NCBI GenBank assembly: GCA_005239895.1
Contig: SBBB01000025.1
Coordinates: 8,980 to 72,979, forward strand
Origin: a bacterium
GTDB taxonomy: Bacteria > Patescibacteriota > Patescibacteriia > SBBB01
Direction: 5' to 3'
DNA: 64,000 nucleotides
Part shown: positions 4,275 to 62,052 of the stretch, one piece after another
Numbering within the stretch: the stretch's first letter is position 1
How the letters are laid out: each line of letters starts with the position of its first letter
The notes under the pieces: generated by a model
Databases searched by the model: none
Told to the model about the DNA's origin: nothing
What the model saw: the letters and a program-made list of their open reading frames with translations, nothing else
Program-made: the position numbers and the translations under genes

Positions 4275-5459
4275 ATGATTATTAAGAAAAATTTGGGGAA
4301 AATTAAAGAATTATTAACACGCGGCGTTAGTGAAGTTGTAATTTTAAAGGATTTAAAAGAAAAATTATTATCCGGCAAGTCCTTGCGTGTTAAGATTGGT
4401 ATTGATCCCACTAGTACTAATGTGCATATTGGGCGCGGGGCAACTTTATTAAAATTGCGAGATTTTCAAGAGCTAGGCCATAAAATAGTTTTGATTATCG
4501 GAGATTTTACGGGTGTTATTGGAGATAGTTCGGATAAAGAACAGGAGCGCCCGGCCTTATCCGCAGAAACTGTAAAAAATAACATGCGAACTTACATTGA
4601 TCAAATTAGCAGAATTTTAGACGTAAGTAAAATTGAGATACATTATAATTCCGAGTGGCTATCTAAATTAAACTATCATGAGATTAGTAAGCAAGCCAAT
4701 CAATTTTCATTGTCTGAATTTATGGCGCGTGAAAATATTAAGAAAAGATTTGAAGCTGGTAAGCGCGTATCTTTGTGTGAAGTTTTGTATCCTTTAATGC
4801 AGGGTTATGATAGCGTGGCGATTAAGGCTGATATTGAAATTGGTGGAACTGATCAAAGGTTTAATATGCTAGCCGGCAGGGTTTTGCAAAAATATTATAA
4901 TCAAGATTTGCAAAATATTATAATGTTGAATTTAATGCTGGGCACGGATGGACGAAAAATGAGTTCTAGTTGGGGCAATACTATAAATATTATGGACGAC
5001 CCTAAGGATATGTTTGGAAAAGTAATGAGTATGCCTGATCATATAATGTTAGATTATTTTATTTCTTGCACGCGTGTAAGTTTAGACAAAATTAAAAAAT
5101 ATAAAACAGCATTACAAGATACAAAAGTAAATCCTAAAGATATTAAAATGGATTTAGCGTACGAGATTACTAAATTATTTTCCGGAGAATTAAATGCCAA
5201 ACAGAGTCAAGAATATTTTATTTCAACTTTTCAGAACAAAGATTTGCCAGCAGATATTAAAGAGTGTAAATTAAATAATAAAAGTATTGTGGATGCGCTG
5301 ATAATTAGTGGTTTGGTTGATAGTAAATCTAAAGCTAAAACCTTGATTGGCCAGGGCGGTATAAAGATTGATAAACAGGTTGTAAAATCCATTGATGCAT
5401 TAGTAAAGTCTGGAAATGTAATTCAAAAGGGAAAAAGATTTTTTGTTAAAGTGATATAA
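4275..5459 (+). CDS. tyrS: Tyrosyl-tRNA synthetase.
   Basis: Class I aaRS N-terminus GIDPTSTNVHIGRGATLLKLRDFQELGHKIVLIIGDFTGVIGD, a KMSSS variant of KMSKS, and a C-terminal S4-like domain (GQGGIKIDKQVV). Confidence 0.85.
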   Translation: MIIKKNLGKIKELLTRGVSEVVILKDLKEKLLSGKSLRVKIGIDPTSTNVHIGRGATLLKLRDFQELGHKIVLIIGDFTGVIGDSSDKEQERPALSAETVKNNMRTYIDQISRILDVSKIEIHYNSEWLSKLNYHEISKQANQFSLSEFMARENIKKRFEAGKRVSLCEVLYPLMQGYDSVAIKADIEIGGTDQRFNMLAGRVLQKYYNQDLQNIIMLNLMLGTDGRKMSSSWGNTINIMDDPKDMFGKVMSMPDHIMLDYFISCTRVSLDKIKKYKTALQDTKVNPKDIKMDLAYEITKLFSGELNAKQSQEYFISTFQNKDLPADIKECKLNNKSIVDALIISGLVDSKSKAKTLIGQGGIKIDKQVVKSIDALVKSGNVIQKGKRFFVKVI

Positions 5460-5481
5460 AAGTTACTTGTATCTCTTATCA

Positions 5482-5553
5482 GGATGGGTGGCTGAGTGGT
5501 CGAAAGCGGCACACTGCTAACGTGTTAGGGTCTAAAAAGCCCTCGCGGGTTCG
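5482..5553 (+). pseudogene. Truncated duplicate of tRNA-Ser(GCU). The 5' ~72 nt are present, through the anticodon and variable arm to the 5' side of the T-arm; the 3' part is missing.
   Basis: Bases 5482-5553 are near-identical to 5920-5991 of the intact tRNA (GGATGGGTGGCTGAGTGGTCGAAAGCGGCACACTGCTAACGTG...GCGGGTTCG). The downstream sequence diverges into unrelated hairpins. No 3' T-stem or acceptor strand is present. Confidence 0.7.
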
Positions 5554-5653
5554 CCCTATCATCCGATAGGGCTTGCCCTATCGTATGATGGGGCGTCCTG
5601 TCGAATGACAGGACGAATCTATTTTATACGAAGAATTGGTGTAAATAAAAAGT

Positions 5654-5911
5654 ATGTATTTCGTTTATGTTCTTGCTTTAAATAATGGTGATTGTTATAT
5701 TGGATCTACTGAAAATTTGAAGCGTAGAATTGTTGAGCATAAATCGAACAAGGTTAATTCAACAATAAATAAAAGTTCAAAACTTATACATTATGAAGTG
5801 TATAAGCTTAAAAGCGATGCTTTAAGAAGAGAGAAATTTCTTAAAACAACTGAAGGCAAAAGATTGTTGAGGCAACAAATACGTGATATATTAAAACAAA
5901 ATAAGACGTAA
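5654..5911 (+). CDS. Small GIY-YIG nuclease-domain protein.
   Basis: MYFVYVLALNNGDCYIGSTENLKRRIVEHKS contains the GIY-YIG and conserved R/E/H core. The protein is 85 aa. Confidence 0.7.
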   Translation: MYFVYVLALNNGDCYIGSTENLKRRIVEHKSNKVNSTINKSSKLIHYEVYKLKSDALRREKFLKTTEGKRLLRQQIRDILKQNKT

Positions 5912-5919
5912 AAGTGAAA

Positions 5920-6007
5920 GGAAGGGTGGCTGAGTGGTCGAAAGCGGCACACTGCTAACGTGTTAGGGTCTAAAAAGCCCTCGCGGGTTCGAATCCCGCC
6001 CCTTCCG
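5920..6007 (+). tRNA. tRNA-Ser (anticodon GCU), type II with a long variable arm.
   Basis: Acceptor stem GGAAGGG/CCCTTCC with G73. D-arm GCT-GAGTGGTCGAA-AGC. Anticodon loop CTGCTAA. Variable arm AGGG..CCCT. T-arm GCGGG-TTCGAAT-CCCGC. Confidence 0.85.
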
Positions 6008-6012
6008 CCTTC

Positions 6013-6063
6013 GTCACGACGTAGCTTTAGCGAAGTCGGACTTCGCCAAATCTACGTCGTGAC
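6013..6063. repeat. Strong nested stem-loop immediately 3' of tRNA-Ser.
   Basis: A 12-bp perfect inverted repeat (GTCACGACGTAG...CTACGTCGTGAC) encloses an inner hairpin GCGAAGTCGGACTTCGC. The GAAGTCGGAC(T/C)TC core recurs at 10781 and 34538. Confidence 0.7.
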
Positions 6064-6132
6064 TACGGCGTGACGCAGTCCGCCTGGTCGAGCGAAAGCG
6101 GGCTATATTCAGAGTTAAAGCAATGAATAATT

Positions 6133-6366
6133 ATGTATTATGTTTACTCTCTAGAATGTAAAGATGGTTATTATATCGGATGTACAGATAACTTGAAAAA
6201 CAGGCTTTTAAGACATAAAAAAGGATACATACCTGCAACAAAAGATAGATTGCCAATAAAACTTGATTTTTATATAGCCTTGCAAAATAAATATAAGGCT
6301 TTTGAATTTGAAAAATACCTTAAGTCTGGTTCAGGAAGAGCTTTTTTAAATAAACATTTTATATAA
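6133..6366 (+). CDS. Small GIY-YIG nuclease-domain protein (second copy).
   Basis: MYYVYSLECKDGYYIGCTDNLKNRLLRHKKG. Confidence 0.7.
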   Translation: MYYVYSLECKDGYYIGCTDNLKNRLLRHKKGYIPATKDRLPIKLDFYIALQNKYKAFEFEKYLKSGSGRAFLNKHFI

Positions 6367-6578: not shown

Positions 6579-6584
6579 GAATCT

Positions 6585-6611
6585 ATGTTTAGTACTCGGA
6601 GTACTAAACAT
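6585..6611. repeat. 27-bp perfect palindrome ATGTTTAGTACTCGGAGTACTAAACAT, a member of the ATGTTTRG...CYAAACAT family.
   Basis: Seen directly. The arms match those at 16083, 26100, 34525, 36231 and 61890. Confidence 0.8.
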
Positions 6612-6641
6612 TAATTAATCATTTCTTTTAATAAAAGAATT

Positions 6642-10682: not shown

Positions 10683-10822
10683 AATAAAGATTATTTTTTA
10701 ATTTGTTTCTTTTAGTCATTCCATCTCAGATCAGGTAGATGGTAAACTCCTACTGGAACCTAGTTTTATTATACATTACTTGGAAGTCGGACCTCCCAGT
10801 TGACAATCCCCGCCCCATTCCT

Positions 10823-10847
10823 GTCATTCCCGCGAAGGCGGGAATCC
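10823..10847. repeat. GC-rich inverted-repeat module GTCATTCCCGCGAAGGCGGGAATCC; left flank of the third GIY-YIG gene.
   Basis: Palindrome seen directly. The inverse copies GGGAATGACAGG sit at 11220-11228 and 11238-11249. Confidence 0.7.
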
Positions 10848-10859
10848 AGGTTATCAAAT

Positions 10860-11129
10860 ATGAACACCTATTATGTATATATTTTAACCAATAAAAGAAA
10901 TGGAACATTGTATATTGGTATAACTAATAATTTGGAACGACATGTGTCTGAACATCAGCTAGGATTAGTAAGTGGATTTACCAAACAATATGATATTTAT
11001 CATATTGTTTGGTACGAAACAACAAATAGTATAGAAGCAGCTCTACAAAGAGAAAAACAATTAAAAAATGGAACAGAAAATGGAAGCTTAACCTTATTGA
11101 AAAAGAGAATCCTCTTTGGAAAGATTTAA
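10860..11129 (+). CDS. Small GIY-YIG nuclease-domain protein (third copy).
   Basis: MNTYYVYILTNKRNGTLYIGITNNLERHVSEHQ. The listed ORF start at 10800 lies inside the repeat module, so the internal ATG at 10860 is preferred. Confidence 0.7.
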   Translation: MNTYYVYILTNKRNGTLYIGITNNLERHVSEHQLGLVSGFTKQYDIYHIVWYETTNSIEAALQREKQLKNGTENGSLTLLKKRILFGKI

Positions 11130-11199
11130 CTACAGGATTACAGTTGTAAGCTGTATATTAATATTCGTTGAAACAGTAGTTATCGGTGTACACGCTCTT

Positions 11200-11249
11200 G
11201 GATTCCCGACCAAGTCGGGAATGACAGGGGTAAACGCGGGAATGACAGG
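11200..11249. repeat. Right-flank inverted-repeat modules: GGATTCCCGACCAAGTCGGGAATGACAGG and CGCGGGAATGACAGG.
   Basis: These are reverse complements of the CCTGTCATTCCCG motif at 10821-10833. Confidence 0.7.
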
Positions 11250-11315
11250 AGAAGCAACGATATTTTATCATTCAGTGATGCATTATGACTTGAATTCAGC
11301 GAGTATAAGGATATA

Positions 11316-16082: not shown

Positions 16083-16143
16083 CCCTCAATGTTTAGGAGT
16101 TGAACTCCTAAACATTGAGTTGAACTCCTAAACATTGAGGGGC
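16083..16143. repeat. Palindromic element CCTCAATGTTTAGGAGTTGAACTCCTAAACATTGAGG with a 20-bp internal tandem duplication.
   Basis: TTGAACTCCTAAACATTGAG occurs twice in tandem. The core is identical to the palindrome at 61890-61918. Confidence 0.8.
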
Positions 16144-19279: not shown

Positions 19280-19395
19280 AAAATTGAAATTTGTATGGTT
19301 TTATAAATCAGTAATTAGTAATCGGTAATCAGTTTATTATTGACTTTAAGTATACTATTGAATTGTGGAAATGACAAAAATTATTATTTTGTTAA

Positions 19396-19605
19396 TCTTC
19401 TTTCCTGTCATTCTCGCGTTCAGTCTTCGTCCAGCCTTTGTAGCCATAGGCTACTATGGCGGAGTAGGCTAGCCGTAGCTACTACGGTCGCTTACGCTTC
19501 ATAGTTTCAGCGACGGAGCGCGAACTAGGCAAGGCGGGAATCCAGGAGCGAATTCAATTAAATACAACCTGGATCCCCGGGTCAAGCCCGAGGATGACAG
19601 AAAGG
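19396..19605. repeat. MITE-like GC-rich element bounded by imperfect inverted termini (CCTGTCATTCTCGCG ... CGAGGATGACAGAAAGG).
   Basis: GC-rich internal palindromes (GTAGCCATAGGCTAC, GCTAGCCGTAGCTACTACGG) sit in an AT-rich background. The termini belong to the TGTCATTC/GAATGACA family. Confidence 0.45.
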
Positions 19606-19667
19606 ATGAGGAAAAATTTTGCTATGCAAAATTTTAGTGCCTGCACTACGGAGCCTTGGCGTAGTAG

Positions 19668-19741
19668 TGCGCCCGAGAGGACTCGAACCCCTAACCTCTT
19701 GGTTCGAAGCCAAGCACTCTATCCAATTGAGCTACGGGCGC
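19668..19741 (-). tRNA. tRNA-Arg (anticodon TCG).
   Basis: Minus-strand read GCGCCCGTAGCTCAATTGGATAGAGTGCTTGGCTTCGAACCAAGAGGTTAGGGGTTCGAGTCCTCTCGGGCGCA. Anticodon loop CTTCGAA; acceptor stem 7 bp; A73. Confidence 0.8.
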
Positions 19742-19826: not shown

Positions 19827-20498
19827 TTAAAAAGATGTATTCAGGCTTGGTCCTGGTAATTGTAAGCCCGAAGGAGGAGGCTGGAGAGAGTCTTGAAGGT
19901 TAACACTTGGTATTTGTGGACCTGGTACTGTGGTTTGAAGTCCTCCAGCGCCAGGTAGAGTGTTTAGGGTTGGATTAGAATTTAATTGTACAGCTGGCGG
20001 TGAACTAAAAAAGTTTCGTACAGAATCAACGCCTCTATTAAAAGCACCAGAAGCAGTATCACCAATACTACCAACCCTACCAGTACCCCCTGCTGATCCA
20101 TATATTCCCGTGCCCTGAACACTTCTTAGTATAAATGTACTAATTGAATAAGCTGAAAGTATAATAGCAGCTCCAATAGCGCTATTAATCATTAAGTTTT
20201 TAGCTTTTTTGATTTGTTCGTCATTGCCGCCCGCTGTCATCCAAAGATAACCAGCAAATACAATTAATACTAAACATATAATACCCAATAAACTTAAAGC
20301 AACTCTAATAAGTAGGGCTATTGTAGATGGTAATGATGGTGTAGCTGTTCCTGTTGTATATCCAGCATGACTACCCCCACCTTCAAGATAGCCCCTTATC
20401 TCATCTCGCGTTGATCCCAATACATTAAAAACAGGAATTATTAATAGTAGTATTATTATAAATGTATAACTAAATTTAATAAACAGGTTTTTATACAT
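19827..20498 (-). CDS. VirB2/TrbC-like (T4SS-type) pilin family paralog 1, with a long Gly/Pro/Ser-rich C-terminal tail.
   Basis: Signal peptide, then two hydrophobic helices around FAGYLWMTAGGNDEQIKKAKNLMINSAIGAAIIL. The C-terminal ~100 aa are low-complexity G/S/P/Q. Confidence 0.55.
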   Translation of the reverse strand: MYKNLFIKFSYTFIIILLLIIPVFNVLGSTRDEIRGYLEGGGSHAGYTTGTATPSLPSTIALLIRVALSLLGIICLVLIVFAGYLWMTAGGNDEQIKKAKNLMINSAIGAAIILSAYSISTFILRSVQGTGIYGSAGGTGRVGSIGDTASGAFNRGVDSVRNFFSSPPAVQLNSNPTLNTLPGAGGLQTTVPGPQIPSVNLQDSLQPPPSGLQLPGPSLNTSF

Positions 20499-20500
20499 AT

Positions 20501-20872
20501 TTATAATAATTTATCTATTAATTTACCTATCACAAAACTACTTATAACATACGCGCCTAAAACAATAATAACACCAATTATGCCATTAACCAATAAACCC
20601 TGGGCTTTTTTCACTTGTTCGTCATTGCCGCCCGCTGTCATCCAAAGATAACCAGCAAATACAACCAAGACTAAGAACACAATACCCAATAAACTTAGAA
20701 CTATCTGAATTACGTTCCCTATTATAACAACTGGATGTTTGGGTTCTTGAGGGCTAACGTCGCTACCAATTAAACGATCCAAGGGGTGTAATGGGAGTGC
20801 GTATGTTAAGGTACTAAATAACATAGAACAAAGCATTATTAATAAAAATAAGTATAAAAGACGGTTTTTCAT
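20501..20872 (-). CDS. VirB2/TrbC-like pilin family paralog 2.
   Basis: VFAGYLWMTAGGNDEQVKKAQGLLVNGIIGVIIVLGAY. Confidence 0.55.
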   Translation of the reverse strand: MKNRLLYLFLLIMLCSMLFSTLTYALPLHPLDRLIGSDVSPQEPKHPVVIIGNVIQIVLSLLGIVFLVLVVFAGYLWMTAGGNDEQVKKAQGLLVNGIIGVIIVLGAYVISSFVIGKLIDKLL

Positions 20873-20887
20873 ATAACAATAATATAG

Positions 20888-21295
20888 CTAATTAATTGTG
20901 AATTGACTCAACCGGCCTATTATGTAATAACTTATAATATACGCTGCTAAAACAATAATAACACCAATTATACCATTAACCAACAATTCTTGCGCTTTGG
21001 TGACTTGCTCTTTGTTTCCGCCTGCTGTCATCCATAAATAGCCAGCGTATACAGTTAATACTAAAAATATAATACCTACAAAACTAATTATCATTACGAT
21101 AATTTTACCAATAAATTTTTCAGGTTGATCGATTATGCTGTCATTTCGATTATATCTTGCGTCTTCAGCAACCTGGTCTAGAATCCCAACACTAGTGTTA
21201 GGATCTGGGGTTTCTGCTGTATGTATAAGAGCAGGAGTAAAAATATTTAGAGCCAGAAACAATAATATTAGCCCAAAATATATTTTTTTATTCAT
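20888..21295 (-). CDS. VirB2/TrbC-like pilin family paralog 3.
   Basis: VYAGYLWMTAGGNKEQVTKAQELLVNGIIGVIIVLAAY. Confidence 0.55.
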   Translation of the reverse strand: MNKKIYFGLILLFLALNIFTPALIHTAETPDPNTSVGILDQVAEDARYNRNDSIIDQPEKFIGKIIVMIISFVGIIFLVLTVYAGYLWMTAGGNKEQVTKAQELLVNGIIGVIIVLAAYIISYYIIGRLSQFTIN

Positions 21296-21311
21296 ATTAA
21301 ATAATATTTTA

Positions 21312-21731
21312 TTAGGACGGGTTTGTAAAACTTATTAAATTTGTTAAAATAAATTTACTTATAATATACGCGGCTACAATTATAATTATACCTATAATAT
21401 TATGTATTATTTTAGTTTGGGCGGTTTTTATTTTTTCTTTTTCTCCGCCGGAATGCATCCATTGTAATCCCGCTATAATTAGATTGGTTAAAAAAATAAT
21501 ACCTATAAAACTTGTTACCACTGCAATAATATTGCCGTACGAGCTAAGAGCGGCATTTCCACTCGGGTCTTTTGTAGGATCACCAAAAAATTTTTTTGCA
21601 GATGTGGCAAAATTATTTTTTACATCATCAAAAGTGCCAGCCTTTATGTACGATTCAGGATAAAATAAATAAATTATACTTCCCAGTAAGCTAAAAAAAA
21701 TATTTTTAATATTTGTTTTTATTTTAAACAT
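21312..21731 (-). CDS. VirB2/TrbC-like pilin family paralog 4 (the most divergent core).
   Basis: IIAGLQWMHSGGEKEKIKTAQTKIIHNIIGIIIIVAAY. Confidence 0.5.
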   Translation of the reverse strand: MFKIKTNIKNIFFSLLGSIIYLFYPESYIKAGTFDDVKNNFATSAKKFFGDPTKDPSGNAALSSYGNIIAVVTSFIGIIFLTNLIIAGLQWMHSGGEKEKIKTAQTKIIHNIIGIIIIVAAYIISKFILTNLISFTNPS

Positions 21732-21737
21732 AAATTT

Positions 21738-22190
21738 TTAAACCTTGCTAGACATGTTATATATATTAAATCCAGGTGGAGTAGTGGGCTGACCGGTTTT
21801 AACACTGGTAATAACTTTTTGTAAAATAAACCAAGTAATAAGTCCAGCGCCCATAACAACAATTAATCCTAAAATAGCCTGGCTTAGCATACCTTGAGCT
21901 TTTTTAACAGCTTCATCATTACCTTTAGCTGTCATCCACTGAATTCCAGCTATAATAATTAAAGTTAAAAATATTACACCCACTAAACCTAAACTATAAA
22001 AAATAATATTACCTATAATTTTTGAAATATCACTTTCGGGTAGCGTGCCAAATGCTTCTCTAGCAGTTGTTGTTAAACCATAATTAGATGCTAGTTTGAT
22101 ATTTCCCAGAGCGTAGGTATTTTGGGCAATCAATAAAACGATTGCGCTAAAAATAAAAAAAGTAATTAATAATGATTTATTGCGAACCAT
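21738..22190 (-). CDS. VirB2/TrbC-like pilin family paralog 5.
   Basis: IIAGIQWMTAKGNDEAVKKAQGMLSQAILGLIVVMGAG. Confidence 0.55.
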   Translation of the reverse strand: MVRNKSLLITFFIFSAIVLLIAQNTYALGNIKLASNYGLTTTAREAFGTLPESDISKIIGNIIFYSLGLVGVIFLTLIIIAGIQWMTAKGNDEAVKKAQGMLSQAILGLIVVMGAGLITWFILQKVITSVKTGQPTTPPGFNIYNMSSKV

Positions 22191-25993: not shown

Positions 25994-26008
25994 CAATCTA
26001 CTGAGTCT

Positions 26009-33986: not shown

Positions 33987-34061
33987 GCCCTTGTAGTTCA
34001 ATGGATAGAATAGGGGACTTCTAATCCCTAGATCGAGGTTCGATTCCTCGCGAGGGCACCA
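33987..34061 (+). tRNA. tRNA-Arg (anticodon TCT) with encoded CCA.
   Basis: GCCCTTGTAGTTCAATGGATAGAATAGGGGACTTCTAATCCCTAGATCGAGGTTCGATTCCTCGCGAGGGCACCA. Anticodon loop CTTCTAA; 7-bp acceptor stem. Confidence 0.85.
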
Positions 34062-34496
34062 AAATTTTGTTTCGTTATAACTTCACAAAATTAAGATTAA
34101 GATGAAGATGAATAATACATATATTGTACAATATATTTTAGAGCAAAATTTTTCCTCATACACATCCTAACACTTAATACATTTTAGGTTTGTTTTTGAA
34201 CAGCCCTCAAAATCCTGAGTAACTAGTAATCAGTAACTAGTAATTTGGGTAGTTATACTTTTATCATTCTGTTTTTCTTTGTTATTTCCGCGTCTTTTTT
34301 GTCATTCCTGTGTTTTTCTGTCATTCCCTTCCCCGATCAGGTCGAGAGTAAACTCCGGTGGCCAGAAGTGTGTTCGTTCATAACAAATGTAATCCTGTAA
34401 TTAAATCTTTTTAAAACAATAATACTCTTTCTACATAAAATTAAGTTGCCATTTCTTTTGTTGATTAAAATATATATTTGAATACACACCTTTTCT

Positions 34497-34588
34497 ACTT
34501 AGTCGCCTTGCCACTAAGTAGACTGGAAGTGTTTGGAGGTCGGACTTCCAAACATTAATAATATTACTTAGTGGCAAGGCGACTAAGT
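34497..34588. repeat. Composite nested repeat: an inverted pair of the 23-bp ACTTAGTGGCAAGGCGACTAAGT element flanking a GGAAGTGTTTGGAGGTCGGACTTCCAAACATT palindrome.
   Basis: CTTAGTCGCCTTGCCACTAAGT at 34497-34519; palindrome at 34525-34556; ACTTAGTGGCAAGGCGACTAAGT at 34566-34588. Confidence 0.8.
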
Positions 34589-34597
34589 GCTGTTACA

Positions 34598-34648
34598 GTC
34601 ATTCCCGCCTGCGCAGGAATGACAAATAAGACGCGGGAATGACAGTGG
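34598..34648. repeat. Juxtaposed inverted-repeat termini GTCATTCCCGCCTGCGCAGGAATGAC plus GCGGGAATGACAGTGG (solo-type, no cargo).
   Basis: Same motif family as the flanks of the GIY-YIG gene at 10860. Confidence 0.7.
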
Positions 34649-34779
34649 TGGAAACAGTGCATTCATTTTAACTTTTGCGATAATCATTAACCATTGACAG
34701 CGCTTCTATTTATACTATAGTATGATTTATAAACAACTCACGAGCTGTACGCTAACTAAAACCATAAAAGGAGGTTGCC

Positions 34780-36230: not shown

Positions 36231-36261
36231 CAATGTTTGGCGGTCGAACCACCAAACATTG
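36231..36261. repeat. Palindrome CAATGTTTGGCGGTCGAACCACCAAACATTG, preceded by hairpin CCCCGTTAGCAACGGGG at 36187-36203.
   Basis: Member of the ATGTTTRG...CYAAACAT family. Confidence 0.7.
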
Positions 36262-36349
36262 GTTTTTCAAAAACAAGCTAGAGGCACTTAATTAAAACCA
36301 GAATCCCCTAACCAATTGTGTTGTTTTGGTTGGGGGGGTATAATATAAG

Positions 36350-61790: not shown

Positions 61791-61889
61791 ATCAATTATA
61801 CTAGCACATATTTAAGATCGTGTCTATATTAGTGTTTTTAAAATTATATTCAAGCCATAATTCAATGTTTTCATATTTTTAAAAAAACC

Positions 61890-61918
61890 AATGTTTAGGA
61901 GTTGAACTCCTAAACATT
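61890..61918. repeat. Palindrome AATGTTTAGGAGTTGAACTCCTAAACATT.
   Basis: Core identical to the palindrome at 16083-16143. Confidence 0.8.
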
Positions 61919-62052
61919 TATTTTTATCACCTGCTGATTTTAGATTTGTTAAATATTTAAAGCTATATTATAATATAATGATATATGGTATAATATAATT
62001 ATATATGGAAGTGGTCGAGCCATGTTTATTTTTTTAATTTTTAAATATAAAT

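Follow-up and report, generated by a model that had tools for sequence, protein, structure and literature searches.

A GIY-YIG Nuclease Cassette Associated with tRNA Genes in Patescibacteria

Introduction

The closest described counterpart of the element considered here is SegB of phage T4, a free-standing GIY-YIG enzyme that also carries DNA-binding modules. The gene for this homing endonuclease sits among tRNA genes, and the T-arm motif GGTTCRANTCC forms part of the 27-bp site that the enzyme recognises; its cleavage of tRNA genes leaves 2-nt 3' overhangs, and SegB spreads along with the tRNA genes next to it (PMC2330249). Homologues of SegB show a statistical association with tRNA genes of many isotypes, and they cause tRNA+segB units to be amplified in tandem, the units being joined at microhomologies (PMC13096335, a 2026 study). 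The present analysis concerns a stretch of 64,000 nt from a Patescibacteria contig (SBBB01000025.1, positions 8,980 to 72,979; the whole stretch is referred to below as the window), in which a GIY-YIG gene of 85 amino acids (aa) lies between a truncated and an intact copy of tRNA-Ser(GCU). Positions 5481-6009 of the window are read here as one copy of a free-standing nuclease cassette that targets tRNA genes, has a SegB-like lifestyle and is common in Patescibacteria, with a probability of roughly 0.55. The parts of the cassette are a leftover tRNA piece split by hairpins, a gene for a GIY-YIG protein of about 85 aa and, directly against that gene and in the same orientation, a complete tRNA gene.

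The cassette is widespread and associated with tRNA genes, and it is probably best placed with the free-standing nucleases that target such genes. Shared with SegB are a GIY-YIG gene standing free among or against tRNA genes, the T-arm motif, and tandem units of tRNA and nuclease gene. SegB is phage-borne, whereas the Patescibacteria family is chromosomal, essentially absent from viral contigs and without a match in PHROG; its protein, far smaller at 85 aa, comprises the catalytic domain alone, falls in the Slx1/UPF0213 branch, and is not a member of the SegB group. Exact abutment on the tRNA, partial duplication from a loop to a tRNA terminus, and a symmetric hairpin module all go beyond SegB. 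In the literature covered, which did not extend to subscription journals, no published description was found of Patescibacteria GIY-YIG genes abutting tRNAs with hairpin-split fragments, the SegB papers being the closest.

Slx1 acts in eukaryotic DNA repair as the nuclease partner of Slx4, and bacterial UPF0213 proteins have, to our knowledge, no known function; we know of no report of mobile behaviour for either. No link between UPF0213 and tRNA genes was found in the published literature. Judging from the titles of PDB entries 6seh and 7cq4, Slx1 cuts branched DNA; a preference for branched DNA over specific sequences fits targets defined by the hairpins of tRNA genes.

The Locus and Its tRNA Repeat

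Positions 5481-5553 and 5919-5991 of the window form a direct repeat that is 72/73 identical with a spacing of 438 bp, and the lone mismatch (T5485 vs. A5923) falls at tRNA position 4. A repeat of 73 nt cannot have arisen by chance in this window (G+C 32.5%). The repeat and the features that it encloses are as follows.

5481..5553, plus strand: leftover 5' part of tRNA-Ser(GCU), repeat copy 1, tRNA positions 0-72
5554..5615, no strand assigned: GC-rich hairpin module of three hairpins of a GIY-linked family, splitting the T-loop at TTCG/AATC
5554-5571: hairpin 1, CCCTATCatccGATAGGG, loop ATCC
5576-5593: hairpin 2, CCCTATCgtatGATGGGG, loop GTAT
5594-5615: hairpin 3 with flanking CGs, CGTCCTGTCgaatGACAGGACG, loop GAAT
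5616..5619, plus strand: AATC, 4 nt of T-loop sequence resuming past the hairpins; similarity ends after it
5620..5653, plus strand: AT-rich spacer of 34 nt from the module to the GIY-YIG start codon
5654..5911, plus strand: 85-aa GIY-YIG nuclease gene, Slx1/UPF0213-type, catalytic domain only (PF01541)
5920..6009, plus strand: intact tRNA-Ser(GCU) gene, whose 5' part is repeat copy 2 (5919-5991 with the preceding base)

The intact tRNA gene was called by ARAGORN at 5920-6009, scores 56.1 bits against the Rfam tRNA model, and starts 8 nt past the stop codon of the 85-aa gene. Repeat copy 1 stops after the T-loop TTCG (5550-5553) and as a tRNA scores 21.6 bits, under the 29-bit threshold. The first-pass annotation of this DNA had described a repeat of the tRNA-Ser start into the T-arm at 5482-5553, hairpins following the truncated copy, an 85-aa GIY-YIG gene between the two copies, and no 3' half matching the truncated copy anywhere in the window. 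Each of these descriptions is borne out, the repeat being one base longer on its left side. It had also named, as a finding that would refute it, 5482-5553 belonging to a functional intron-containing tRNA. The acceptor strand AATCCCGCCCCWTCCGCC, which would pair with GGATGGG, has its sole window match in the intact tRNA-Ser gene itself, and Rfam scans of the region matched no intron or ribozyme family, tRNA being the only RNA family found. A functional split or intron-containing tRNA was rejected on the low score, the missing 3' half and the lack of an intron family. Interrupted tRNAs, such as those with bacterial group I introns in anticodon loops and the split or intron-containing tRNAs of archaea, resemble the locus in having foreign sequence in a tRNA loop, sometimes with a homing endonuclease; the window locus differs in having no ribozyme core, no 3' half, and an uninterrupted tRNA next door. 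Insertions in the T- or D-loop are also atypical of bacterial introns.

Integrative elements that target tRNA genes offer another comparison, as they too land in a tRNA, keep its function through a partial copy and leave a direct repeat. Such elements span kilobases, carry the gene for a tyrosine or serine recombinase, and duplicate the 3' end of the tRNA, whereas the GIY-YIG cassette has no recombinase, measures 0.3-0.45 kb, duplicates a 5' or a 3' part depending on the locus, and leaves a piece split by hairpins. The repeat in the window is the 5' part (positions 0-72), not the 3' end as in integrase-type elements. The first-pass annotation came closest to such an element in proposing that a GIY-bearing mini-element of about 440 bp, carrying a tRNA 5' segment, inserts within the T-loop of a tRNA gene. 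One recurring unit does exist, 438 bp long here, and the layout fits a small unit with a GIY-YIG gene that preserves a whole tRNA because it brings along a partial copy; insertion into the T-loop is less well supported as the generating event, with no recombinase present, no empty site found and some loci suggesting tandem duplication instead. In the stricter form of an island-like mini-circle of about 440 bp that integrates site-specifically, with the tRNA 5' segment as its attachment site, the proposal is quite improbable. A direct repeat of tRNA sequence does flank the unit, and tandems such as that of locus L166 (described below) could come from circles or yield them by repeat recombination. 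Between the repeats, however, GIY-YIG is the only open reading frame (ORF), for which Pfam gives the GIY-YIG domain alone; no integrase, other recombinase or HUH Y1 transposase is encoded, and the sole product is a hydrolytic nuclease. Classical tRNA-targeting elements moreover duplicate the 3' end of the tRNA and not its 5' part, and an attachment site leaves unexplained why hairpins lie exactly in the loop of the leftover copy.

Recurrence at Other tRNA Genes

Relatives of the 85-aa protein (59-74% identical) were collected through three protein look-ups and a scan of metagenome contigs with an alignment of 27 sequences (80 loci), giving a total of 84 loci, about 60 of them non-redundant. 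In 76 of the 84 the GIY-YIG gene directly adjoins a tRNA gene of the same strand; a tRNA on the opposite strand within 100 nt occurs in none (0/84). Most of the eight exceptions that have no touching tRNA lie near a contig end or beside a tRNA fragment split by hairpins. The tRNAs concerned represent 23 anticodons and 13 amino acids.

Two mirror-image layouts occur. In class A (53 loci, the window among them) the order is tRNA 5' piece, hairpins, GIY-YIG gene and complete tRNA, which begins -49 to +64 nt relative to the GIY-YIG stop (the limit set was 70 nt past the stop codon). Class B (25 loci) runs from complete tRNA through GIY-YIG gene and hairpins to a tRNA 3' piece, with the tRNA ending at most 30 nt before the GIY-YIG ATG and often 0-2 nt before it; two loci, counted in both classes, have a tRNA on both sides. 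The break lies within a loop of the tRNA in every case, and in both classes a well-preserved leftover piece spans from the interrupted loop to the tRNA terminus. The repeat starts at tRNA position -6 to +2 in class A (0 in the window) and ends at +0 to +7 from the tRNA end in class B, and past the hairpins tRNA sequence continues for only 4-10 nt in other loci, against 4 in the window. GIY-YIG gene, truncated tRNA, hairpins and intact tRNA are one unit; this architecture recurs in dozens of unrelated loci with many different tRNAs, and the layout of the window is not a one-off.

These counts bear directly on the simplest account of the locus, namely a chance tandem duplication with a decaying pseudo-tRNA beside an unrelated GIY-YIG gene, or else half of a split or intron-containing tRNA. 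In its favour, partial tRNA genes are common in prokaryote genomes according to one report (PMC9897764). Recurrence in 76/84 loci under strict rules of strand and distance already contradicts this account, as do hairpins exclusive to the neighbourhoods of GIY-YIG genes (see below) and, for the split-tRNA version, the 21.6-bit score and the lack of a 3' half in the window or of any intron or ribozyme match; it is hardly tenable.

The Hairpin Module

Folded as single-stranded DNA, the hairpin stretch of the window reaches -25.2 kcal/mol, with z = -6.2 vs. shuffled sequences. The usual module in the family is 42 nt long and has the form CG-[7-nt arm]-ATNC-[arm']-CG-[7-nt arm]-GNAT-[arm']-CG, with a CG at each end and one more between the two hairpins. 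Arms vary from locus to locus with their complementarity kept, and the loops and the closing TC/GA are conserved. The two loops are reverse complements of each other, and the module is therefore identical on both strands. Most double-hairpin modules (32 of 48 non-redundant ones) lie in a T-loop, at GGTT[CG..CG]ANTCC; five occur at the CG of tRNA-Arg anticodon loops and the rest in D-loops or decayed contexts. Hairpins lie on the side of the GIY-YIG gene away from the intact tRNA in 44/53 class A and 21/23 class B loci; in class A a median of 20 nt separates the last hairpin from the ATG, and in class B the hairpins follow the conserved GIY-YIG core by a median of 13 nt. Stem mismatches comprise 22 G.T pairs and 62 others. 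The lack of a marked G.U excess, together with the two-fold symmetry, is compatible with a role of the hairpins at the level of DNA.

A small nuclease gene accompanied by short, GC-rich palindromes whose loops are conserved and whose stems covary is also typical of repetitive extragenic palindromic (REP) sequences with their RAYT genes and of IS200/IS605 elements. Those systems use a Y1 HUH transposase and palindromes scattered over the genome, whereas the cassette has a GIY-YIG enzyme and hairpins that lie in tRNA loops at most 450 nt from the gene. In 265 kb of GIY-YIG loci 150 family hairpins were counted, 148 of them within 450 nt of a GIY-YIG gene; the 174 kb of these loci that lie farther out contained only 2. 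Control DNA from Patescibacteria (627 kb) gave only 4, with unrelated loops. A 690-kb control held no member of the GIY-YIG family, and as it is too small to give copies per genome it served for hairpin frequency only. An origin from a dispersed REP-like repeat or miniature inverted-repeat transposable element was rejected, the family being confined to GIY-YIG neighbourhoods: with 148/150 adjoining a GIY-YIG gene, the hairpins are not a dispersed repeat. The window agrees, having no family hairpin besides those at 5553-5615. On this point the first-pass annotation does not stand. It had taken CCTGTCGAATGACAGG for a juxtaposed pair of a terminus motif seen elsewhere, but this sequence is one hairpin of the GIY-tied module. 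The motif GAATGACAGG does have 9 window matches at no more than one mismatch vs. 2 expected; the remaining copies are part of another repeat, GGGAATGACAGG, which adjoins CCCGC hairpins.

Old fragments gather extra hairpins in several loops, and hairpins may be nested in the loops of other hairpins (L155, L158, L145, L156; loci are given by L-numbers where they need to be told apart). Such nesting is one of the points in favour of a bolder reading, true transposition with a very long target-site duplication, in which about 0.3 kb of GIY-YIG gene and hairpins would enter after staggered nicks, one at the loop CG and one on the other strand at the acceptor-stem base, which is the tRNA gene boundary, and gap filling would regenerate the tRNA. 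A Slx1-like junction cutter acting on an extruded cloverleaf would make both cut positions a matter of structure. GIY-YIG gene and double hairpin (about 0.3 kb) might then be an autonomous element of a class of its own, and perhaps one of the smallest on record, which would cut tRNA genes as folded DNA at the loop CG and the acceptor-stem base, use the symmetric hairpin as its end, rebuild the tRNA by a target duplication of 20-75 nt and borrow tRNA promoter and processing for expression, a transposition without transposase. That the cassette is a distinct kind of minimal mobile element in this sense is possible but unlikely, and the view of an autonomous class is put forward only tentatively. 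Repeat boundaries at tRNA termini and loops in both mirror forms, the constant core of GIY-YIG gene and hairpins, the Slx1-like fold, a CG at every module junction, as 2-nt cohesive ends would give, and nested hairpins at L145, L158 and L156 argue for transposition. The 4-10 nt of local tRNA past the hairpins, however, which include bases specific to the Arg anticodon stem, argue against it: because local tRNA sequence resumes there, the hairpins lie inside a longer duplicated segment and not at its edge. Further evidence on this side comes from leftover pieces that are unlike the adjacent tRNA (L102, L147, L116), from loci where a split piece and tRNA duplication occur with no GIY-YIG gene between (L173, L116, L120), and from the absence of a joining enzyme.

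The 85-aa GIY-YIG Protein

The protein matches PF01541 with 51.7 bits against a cut-off of 22.6 (E = 1.1e-13), the domain covering residues 1-69. It has 249 homologues, and all those with a named source are labelled as Patescibacteria/CPR (candidate phyla radiation) phyla. An alignment of 27 homologues has a mean column identity of 65%, with Y5, Y15, R25, H29 and E60 invariant and G17 nearly so; to judge from the sequence, the catalytic set GIY / YIG / R / H / E is intact and the protein is a member of the GIY-YIG superfamily. Nuclease activity is predicted from the domain and these catalytic residues. The AlphaFold model (predicted local distance difference test, pLDDT, 91.8) contains a three-stranded sheet and helices, so that the protein comprises a catalytic domain and two short helices, with no sequence-reading DNA-binding domain.

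Sequence comparison with the PDB matched 1zg2 (E = 6.5e-10) and 1ywl (E = 1.4e-8), the UPF0213 proteins BH0048 and EF2693, and neither I-TevI nor UvrC was among these matches. The fold search likewise had GIY-YIG structures at its top, BH0048/EF2693 and the nuclease domain of Slx1 (template-modelling score 0.6, root-mean-square deviation 2.3-3.1 A); Foldseek probabilities were 0.99 for Slx1, 0.38 for I-TevI and 0.16 for UvrC. The best sequence and fold matches therefore both lie with Slx1/UPF0213, and sequence and model place the protein in this branch and not in that of I-TevI. Against TIGR01453 it scores 29.4 bits, under the cut-off of 56. A PHROG search with the 85-aa protein gave no match, and 2.9 million viral contigs yielded one weak partial match to the family, leaving carriage by phages unsupported.

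Signs of Turnover and Possible Movement Among tRNA Genes

Among GIY-YIG proteins, the nearest neighbour is of the same class for 52/60 sequences (33.7 expected) and at a tRNA for the same amino acid for 42/60 (11.6 expected), with the same anticodon in only 23/60; GIY-YIG lineages thus appear, from their sequences, faithful to a tRNA family while moving among isoacceptors. At L102 the leftover 3' piece comes from a different tRNA-Arg allele than the intact gene, and therefore the intact tRNA seems to have come with the cassette; several class B loci resemble L102 in this allele mismatch. In three class A loci (L086, L098, L169) the repeat also holds the last 45-50 nt of a GIY-YIG gene, remnants that point to tandem duplication of a GIY+tRNA unit, of which they are the expected leftover. 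A perfect (99.8%) two-fold tandem of a 405-nt unit stands ahead of the intact tRNA at L166:2364-3264, the unit comprising a tRNA-Ser(CGA) 5' part, hairpins, AATCC and GIY-YIG gene; either true amplification by way of the direct repeats or an artefact of assembly could account for it.

Two pairs of loci were considered as possible insertion polymorphisms and rejected. L085, which has an extra copy of the GIY-YIG 3' end and tRNA, carries 1.4 kb (L085:4483-5889) that are missing from L086 at position 4481: a second tRNA-Arg(GCG) after the last 38 nt of GIY-YIG, an HD-domain gene and the start of an M50 peptidase, giving L085 two full tRNA-Arg copies and one fragment in total. The difference is a 1.4-kb deletion in L086 and not insertion of an element. 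The GIY-YIG gene of L177 is a pseudogene with a 16-nt deletion relative to L184, so that this pair reflects a deletion inside the gene and not an empty site.

A different arrangement was seen at L187:1745-1970, where an intact tRNA-Ser(TGA) lies between the 5' and 3' halves of another tRNA-Ser (GGAAGCG/CGCTTCC), in its predecessor's anticodon loop, with 13-nt linkers and with neither hairpin module nor GIY-YIG gene inside.

For the window locus itself, the comparison depends on the neighbouring tyrS. Relatives of TyrS in 185,000 species genomes are at best 59% identical (80 loci), and none of the 80 has a tRNA-Ser downstream of tyrS; in a database of 5.8 billion proteins the next-best TyrS is 65% identical. 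As the nearest TyrS are only 59-65% identical and lack synteny, no empty site is available for this locus. The sole other contig with an identical TyrS (L001, Logan SRR6943130_46843) ends 56 nt past the gene, inside the repeat, as expected from an assembly break at a duplication. Elements of this kind probably fragment short-read assemblies at tRNA genes.

A Model for the Cassette

In the preferred reading, the nuclease would cut tRNA-gene DNA in a loop, at the CG of TTCG/AA in the T-loop and in other loci in the Arg anticodon loop or the D-loop, likely with a 2-nt stagger as in other GIY-YIG enzymes; self-complementary 2-nt overhangs fit, because CG flanks every unit of the module. Repair might then copy the cassette from an occupied allele, with tRNA parts and flanks as homology arms, or alternatively yield a local segmental duplication, and either route would produce one intact tRNA and a leftover piece bounded by the cut loop and a terminus of the tRNA. 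The hairpin module would occupy the cut site of the leftover piece, where it may destroy the target of that copy, and it may be the nuclease's own binding site. The GIY-YIG gene is probably a passenger of the tRNA transcription unit that is freed at tRNA processing. The enzyme might find its target through structure-specific recognition, as in Slx1. The family as a whole is probably selfish DNA living on tRNA genes.

Several observations weigh against this reading. Empty sites or presence/absence polymorphism were found for no locus, all related loci open to comparison carrying the GIY-YIG gene, and mobility is consequently deduced from distribution only. The closest GIY-YIG pairs at different tRNAs are just 76-81% identical, which offers no recent jump. 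The intact tRNA retains the presumed target TTCGAA, and self-immunity is not accounted for; neither is the origin of the hairpins. SegB and I-TevI have a DNA-binding domain, which the 85-aa protein lacks. Since GIY-YIG enzymes cleave DNA by hydrolysis and have no joining activity, insertion would rely on repair by the host. A promoter scan was uninformative, with 6 promoter-like sites vs. 5 expected from shuffled sequence and no convincing promoter for the GIY-YIG gene; the Shine-Dalgarno motif was no better as a test of leaderless expression, since control genes lacked it too under crude start calling. Finally, the arrangement is kept between relatives whose flanks are only 77-82% identical, and ORFs are intact over the first 80 codons in 84/84 loci, in a sample that favours good matches. 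Such conservation and intact ORFs fit a long-lived selected gene as well as a selfish one.

A domesticated host gene is the natural form of that alternative. The protein would have a cellular role at tRNA loci or in tRNA metabolism and be inherited vertically, with tRNA copies and hairpins as regulatory or processing elements or as by-products. The strong conservation of the protein across the 27 homologues, the uniformly intact ORFs, the arrangement shared by diverged relatives, the fidelity of lineages to one tRNA amino-acid family and the absence of the family from viral contigs all suit it, and a prokaryotic Slx1-like domain fused to a TrmH-type tRNA methyltransferase suggests a connection with RNA metabolism (PMC1564403). 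Domestication does not, however, predict 23 anticodons and two mirror layouts, nor leftovers from other alleles, tandem units and a pseudogene, and the symmetry of the module and the lack of a marked G.U excess speak against an RNA-level regulatory element. This alternative is considered distinctly unlikely, and the preferred reading is still that of a cassette with a SegB-like lifestyle.

Neighbouring Genes and Other Repeats in the Window

The cassette is bordered by the following features.

4275..5459, plus strand: tyrS (tyrosyl-tRNA synthetase), an ORF with Pfam tRNA-synt_1b on the identical protein
6010..6132, plus strand: GC-rich structured spacer of 123 nt, with a nested palindrome (6013-6063) and a conserved block (6063-6103)
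6133..6366, plus strand: second GIY-YIG gene, 77 aa, of a different subfamily (PF01541, E = 1.9e-11)

The left neighbour tyrS lies outside the element and ends 21 nt ahead of the repeat. On the right, the second GIY-YIG gene and the 12-bp perfect inverted repeat that the first-pass annotation had placed after the tRNA were recovered; GTCACGACGTAG (6013-6024) pairs with CTACGTCGTGAC (6052-6063) and encloses an inner hairpin, and as RNA the segment 6005-6125 folds at -52.7 kcal/mol (z = -4.6). The second GIY-YIG belongs to a subfamily of more than 2500 homologues, whose relatives lie about 100-130 nt downstream of tRNA-Ser genes (L177-L186, L187/L188). Block 6063-6103 is conserved between tRNA-Ser and these relatives in other genomes, and a spacer block CTAYGGCGTGAYGAAGTCCGCC...GAGCGAAAGCGGGC between tRNA-Ser and gene is common to window 6010-6366, L177:1403-1734 and L187:1373-1734; it may or may not be a decayed 3' piece of a tRNA. 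The nested palindrome at 6013-6063 appears to have been inserted into this conserved spacer framework. A third subfamily (83 aa, L177-L186) has the class A layout, with a tRNA-Ser 5' piece whose D-loop is split by two different hairpins; other GIY-YIG subfamilies thus obey the same tRNA-linked principle. An exact-sequence look-up returned no record of the downstream Tag glycosylase or of the second GIY-YIG protein.

Elsewhere in the window, 10764-11260 contains a third GIY-YIG gene, with an ATG at 10860 and an apparent frameshift at an A-run near its 3' end, past which the other frame reads KKWNRKWKLNLIEKENPLWKDL. Its flanks are inverted GC-rich repeats (CCTGTCATTCCCGCgaagGCGGGAATCCAGG on the left, GGATTCCCGaccaagtCGGGAATGACAGG and GCGGGAATGACAGG on the right), which hold most other window copies of GAATGACAGG, and the segment may represent a separate kind of element that carries a GIY-YIG gene and is bounded by terminal inverted repeats. 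Clusters of GC-rich hairpins with GGGAATCCAGG / GTCATTCC motifs occur at 19380-19620 and 34260-34650, downstream of tRNA-Arg(TCG) (19667-19741, minus strand) and tRNA-Arg(TCT) (33987-34061) respectively, with no GIY-YIG gene of the 85-aa family near; a palindrome family CTACTTAGTCGCCTTGCCACTAAGT in these clusters recurs at 26007, 34495, 34564 and 59170. Five copies of a 170-nt unit, about 400-480 nt apart and 61-77% identical, span 20125-21989 and look like a tandem array of small paralogous genes. The palindrome CAATGTTTAGGAGTTGAACTCCTAAACATTG stands at gene ends (6583-6617, 16087-16141, 36231-36265, 61889-61923) and probably represents a family of terminator-like hairpins.

Implications

The genomes of Patescibacteria are tiny and streamlined, and selfish DNA is considered scarce there. 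If the reading given here is true, their tRNA genes carry a widespread and unrecognised passenger, a minimal nuclease that seems to borrow both its target and its expression signals from tRNA, and whose diagnostic scar is a tRNA piece split by a symmetric double hairpin. The large group of bacterial UPF0213/Slx1-like proteins would thereby gain a concrete, testable substrate, and the link between SegB and tRNA genes would extend from phages to bacterial chromosomes. With its hairpin module and exact loop-to-terminus duplications, the cassette would also be a defined system in which to study how a nuclease-only element is copied, and it might perhaps provide a very small structure-guided nuclease as a tool. 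For the Patescibacteria themselves, it would account for fragments of tRNA genes, and for assembly breaks beside tRNA genes, in their genomes.

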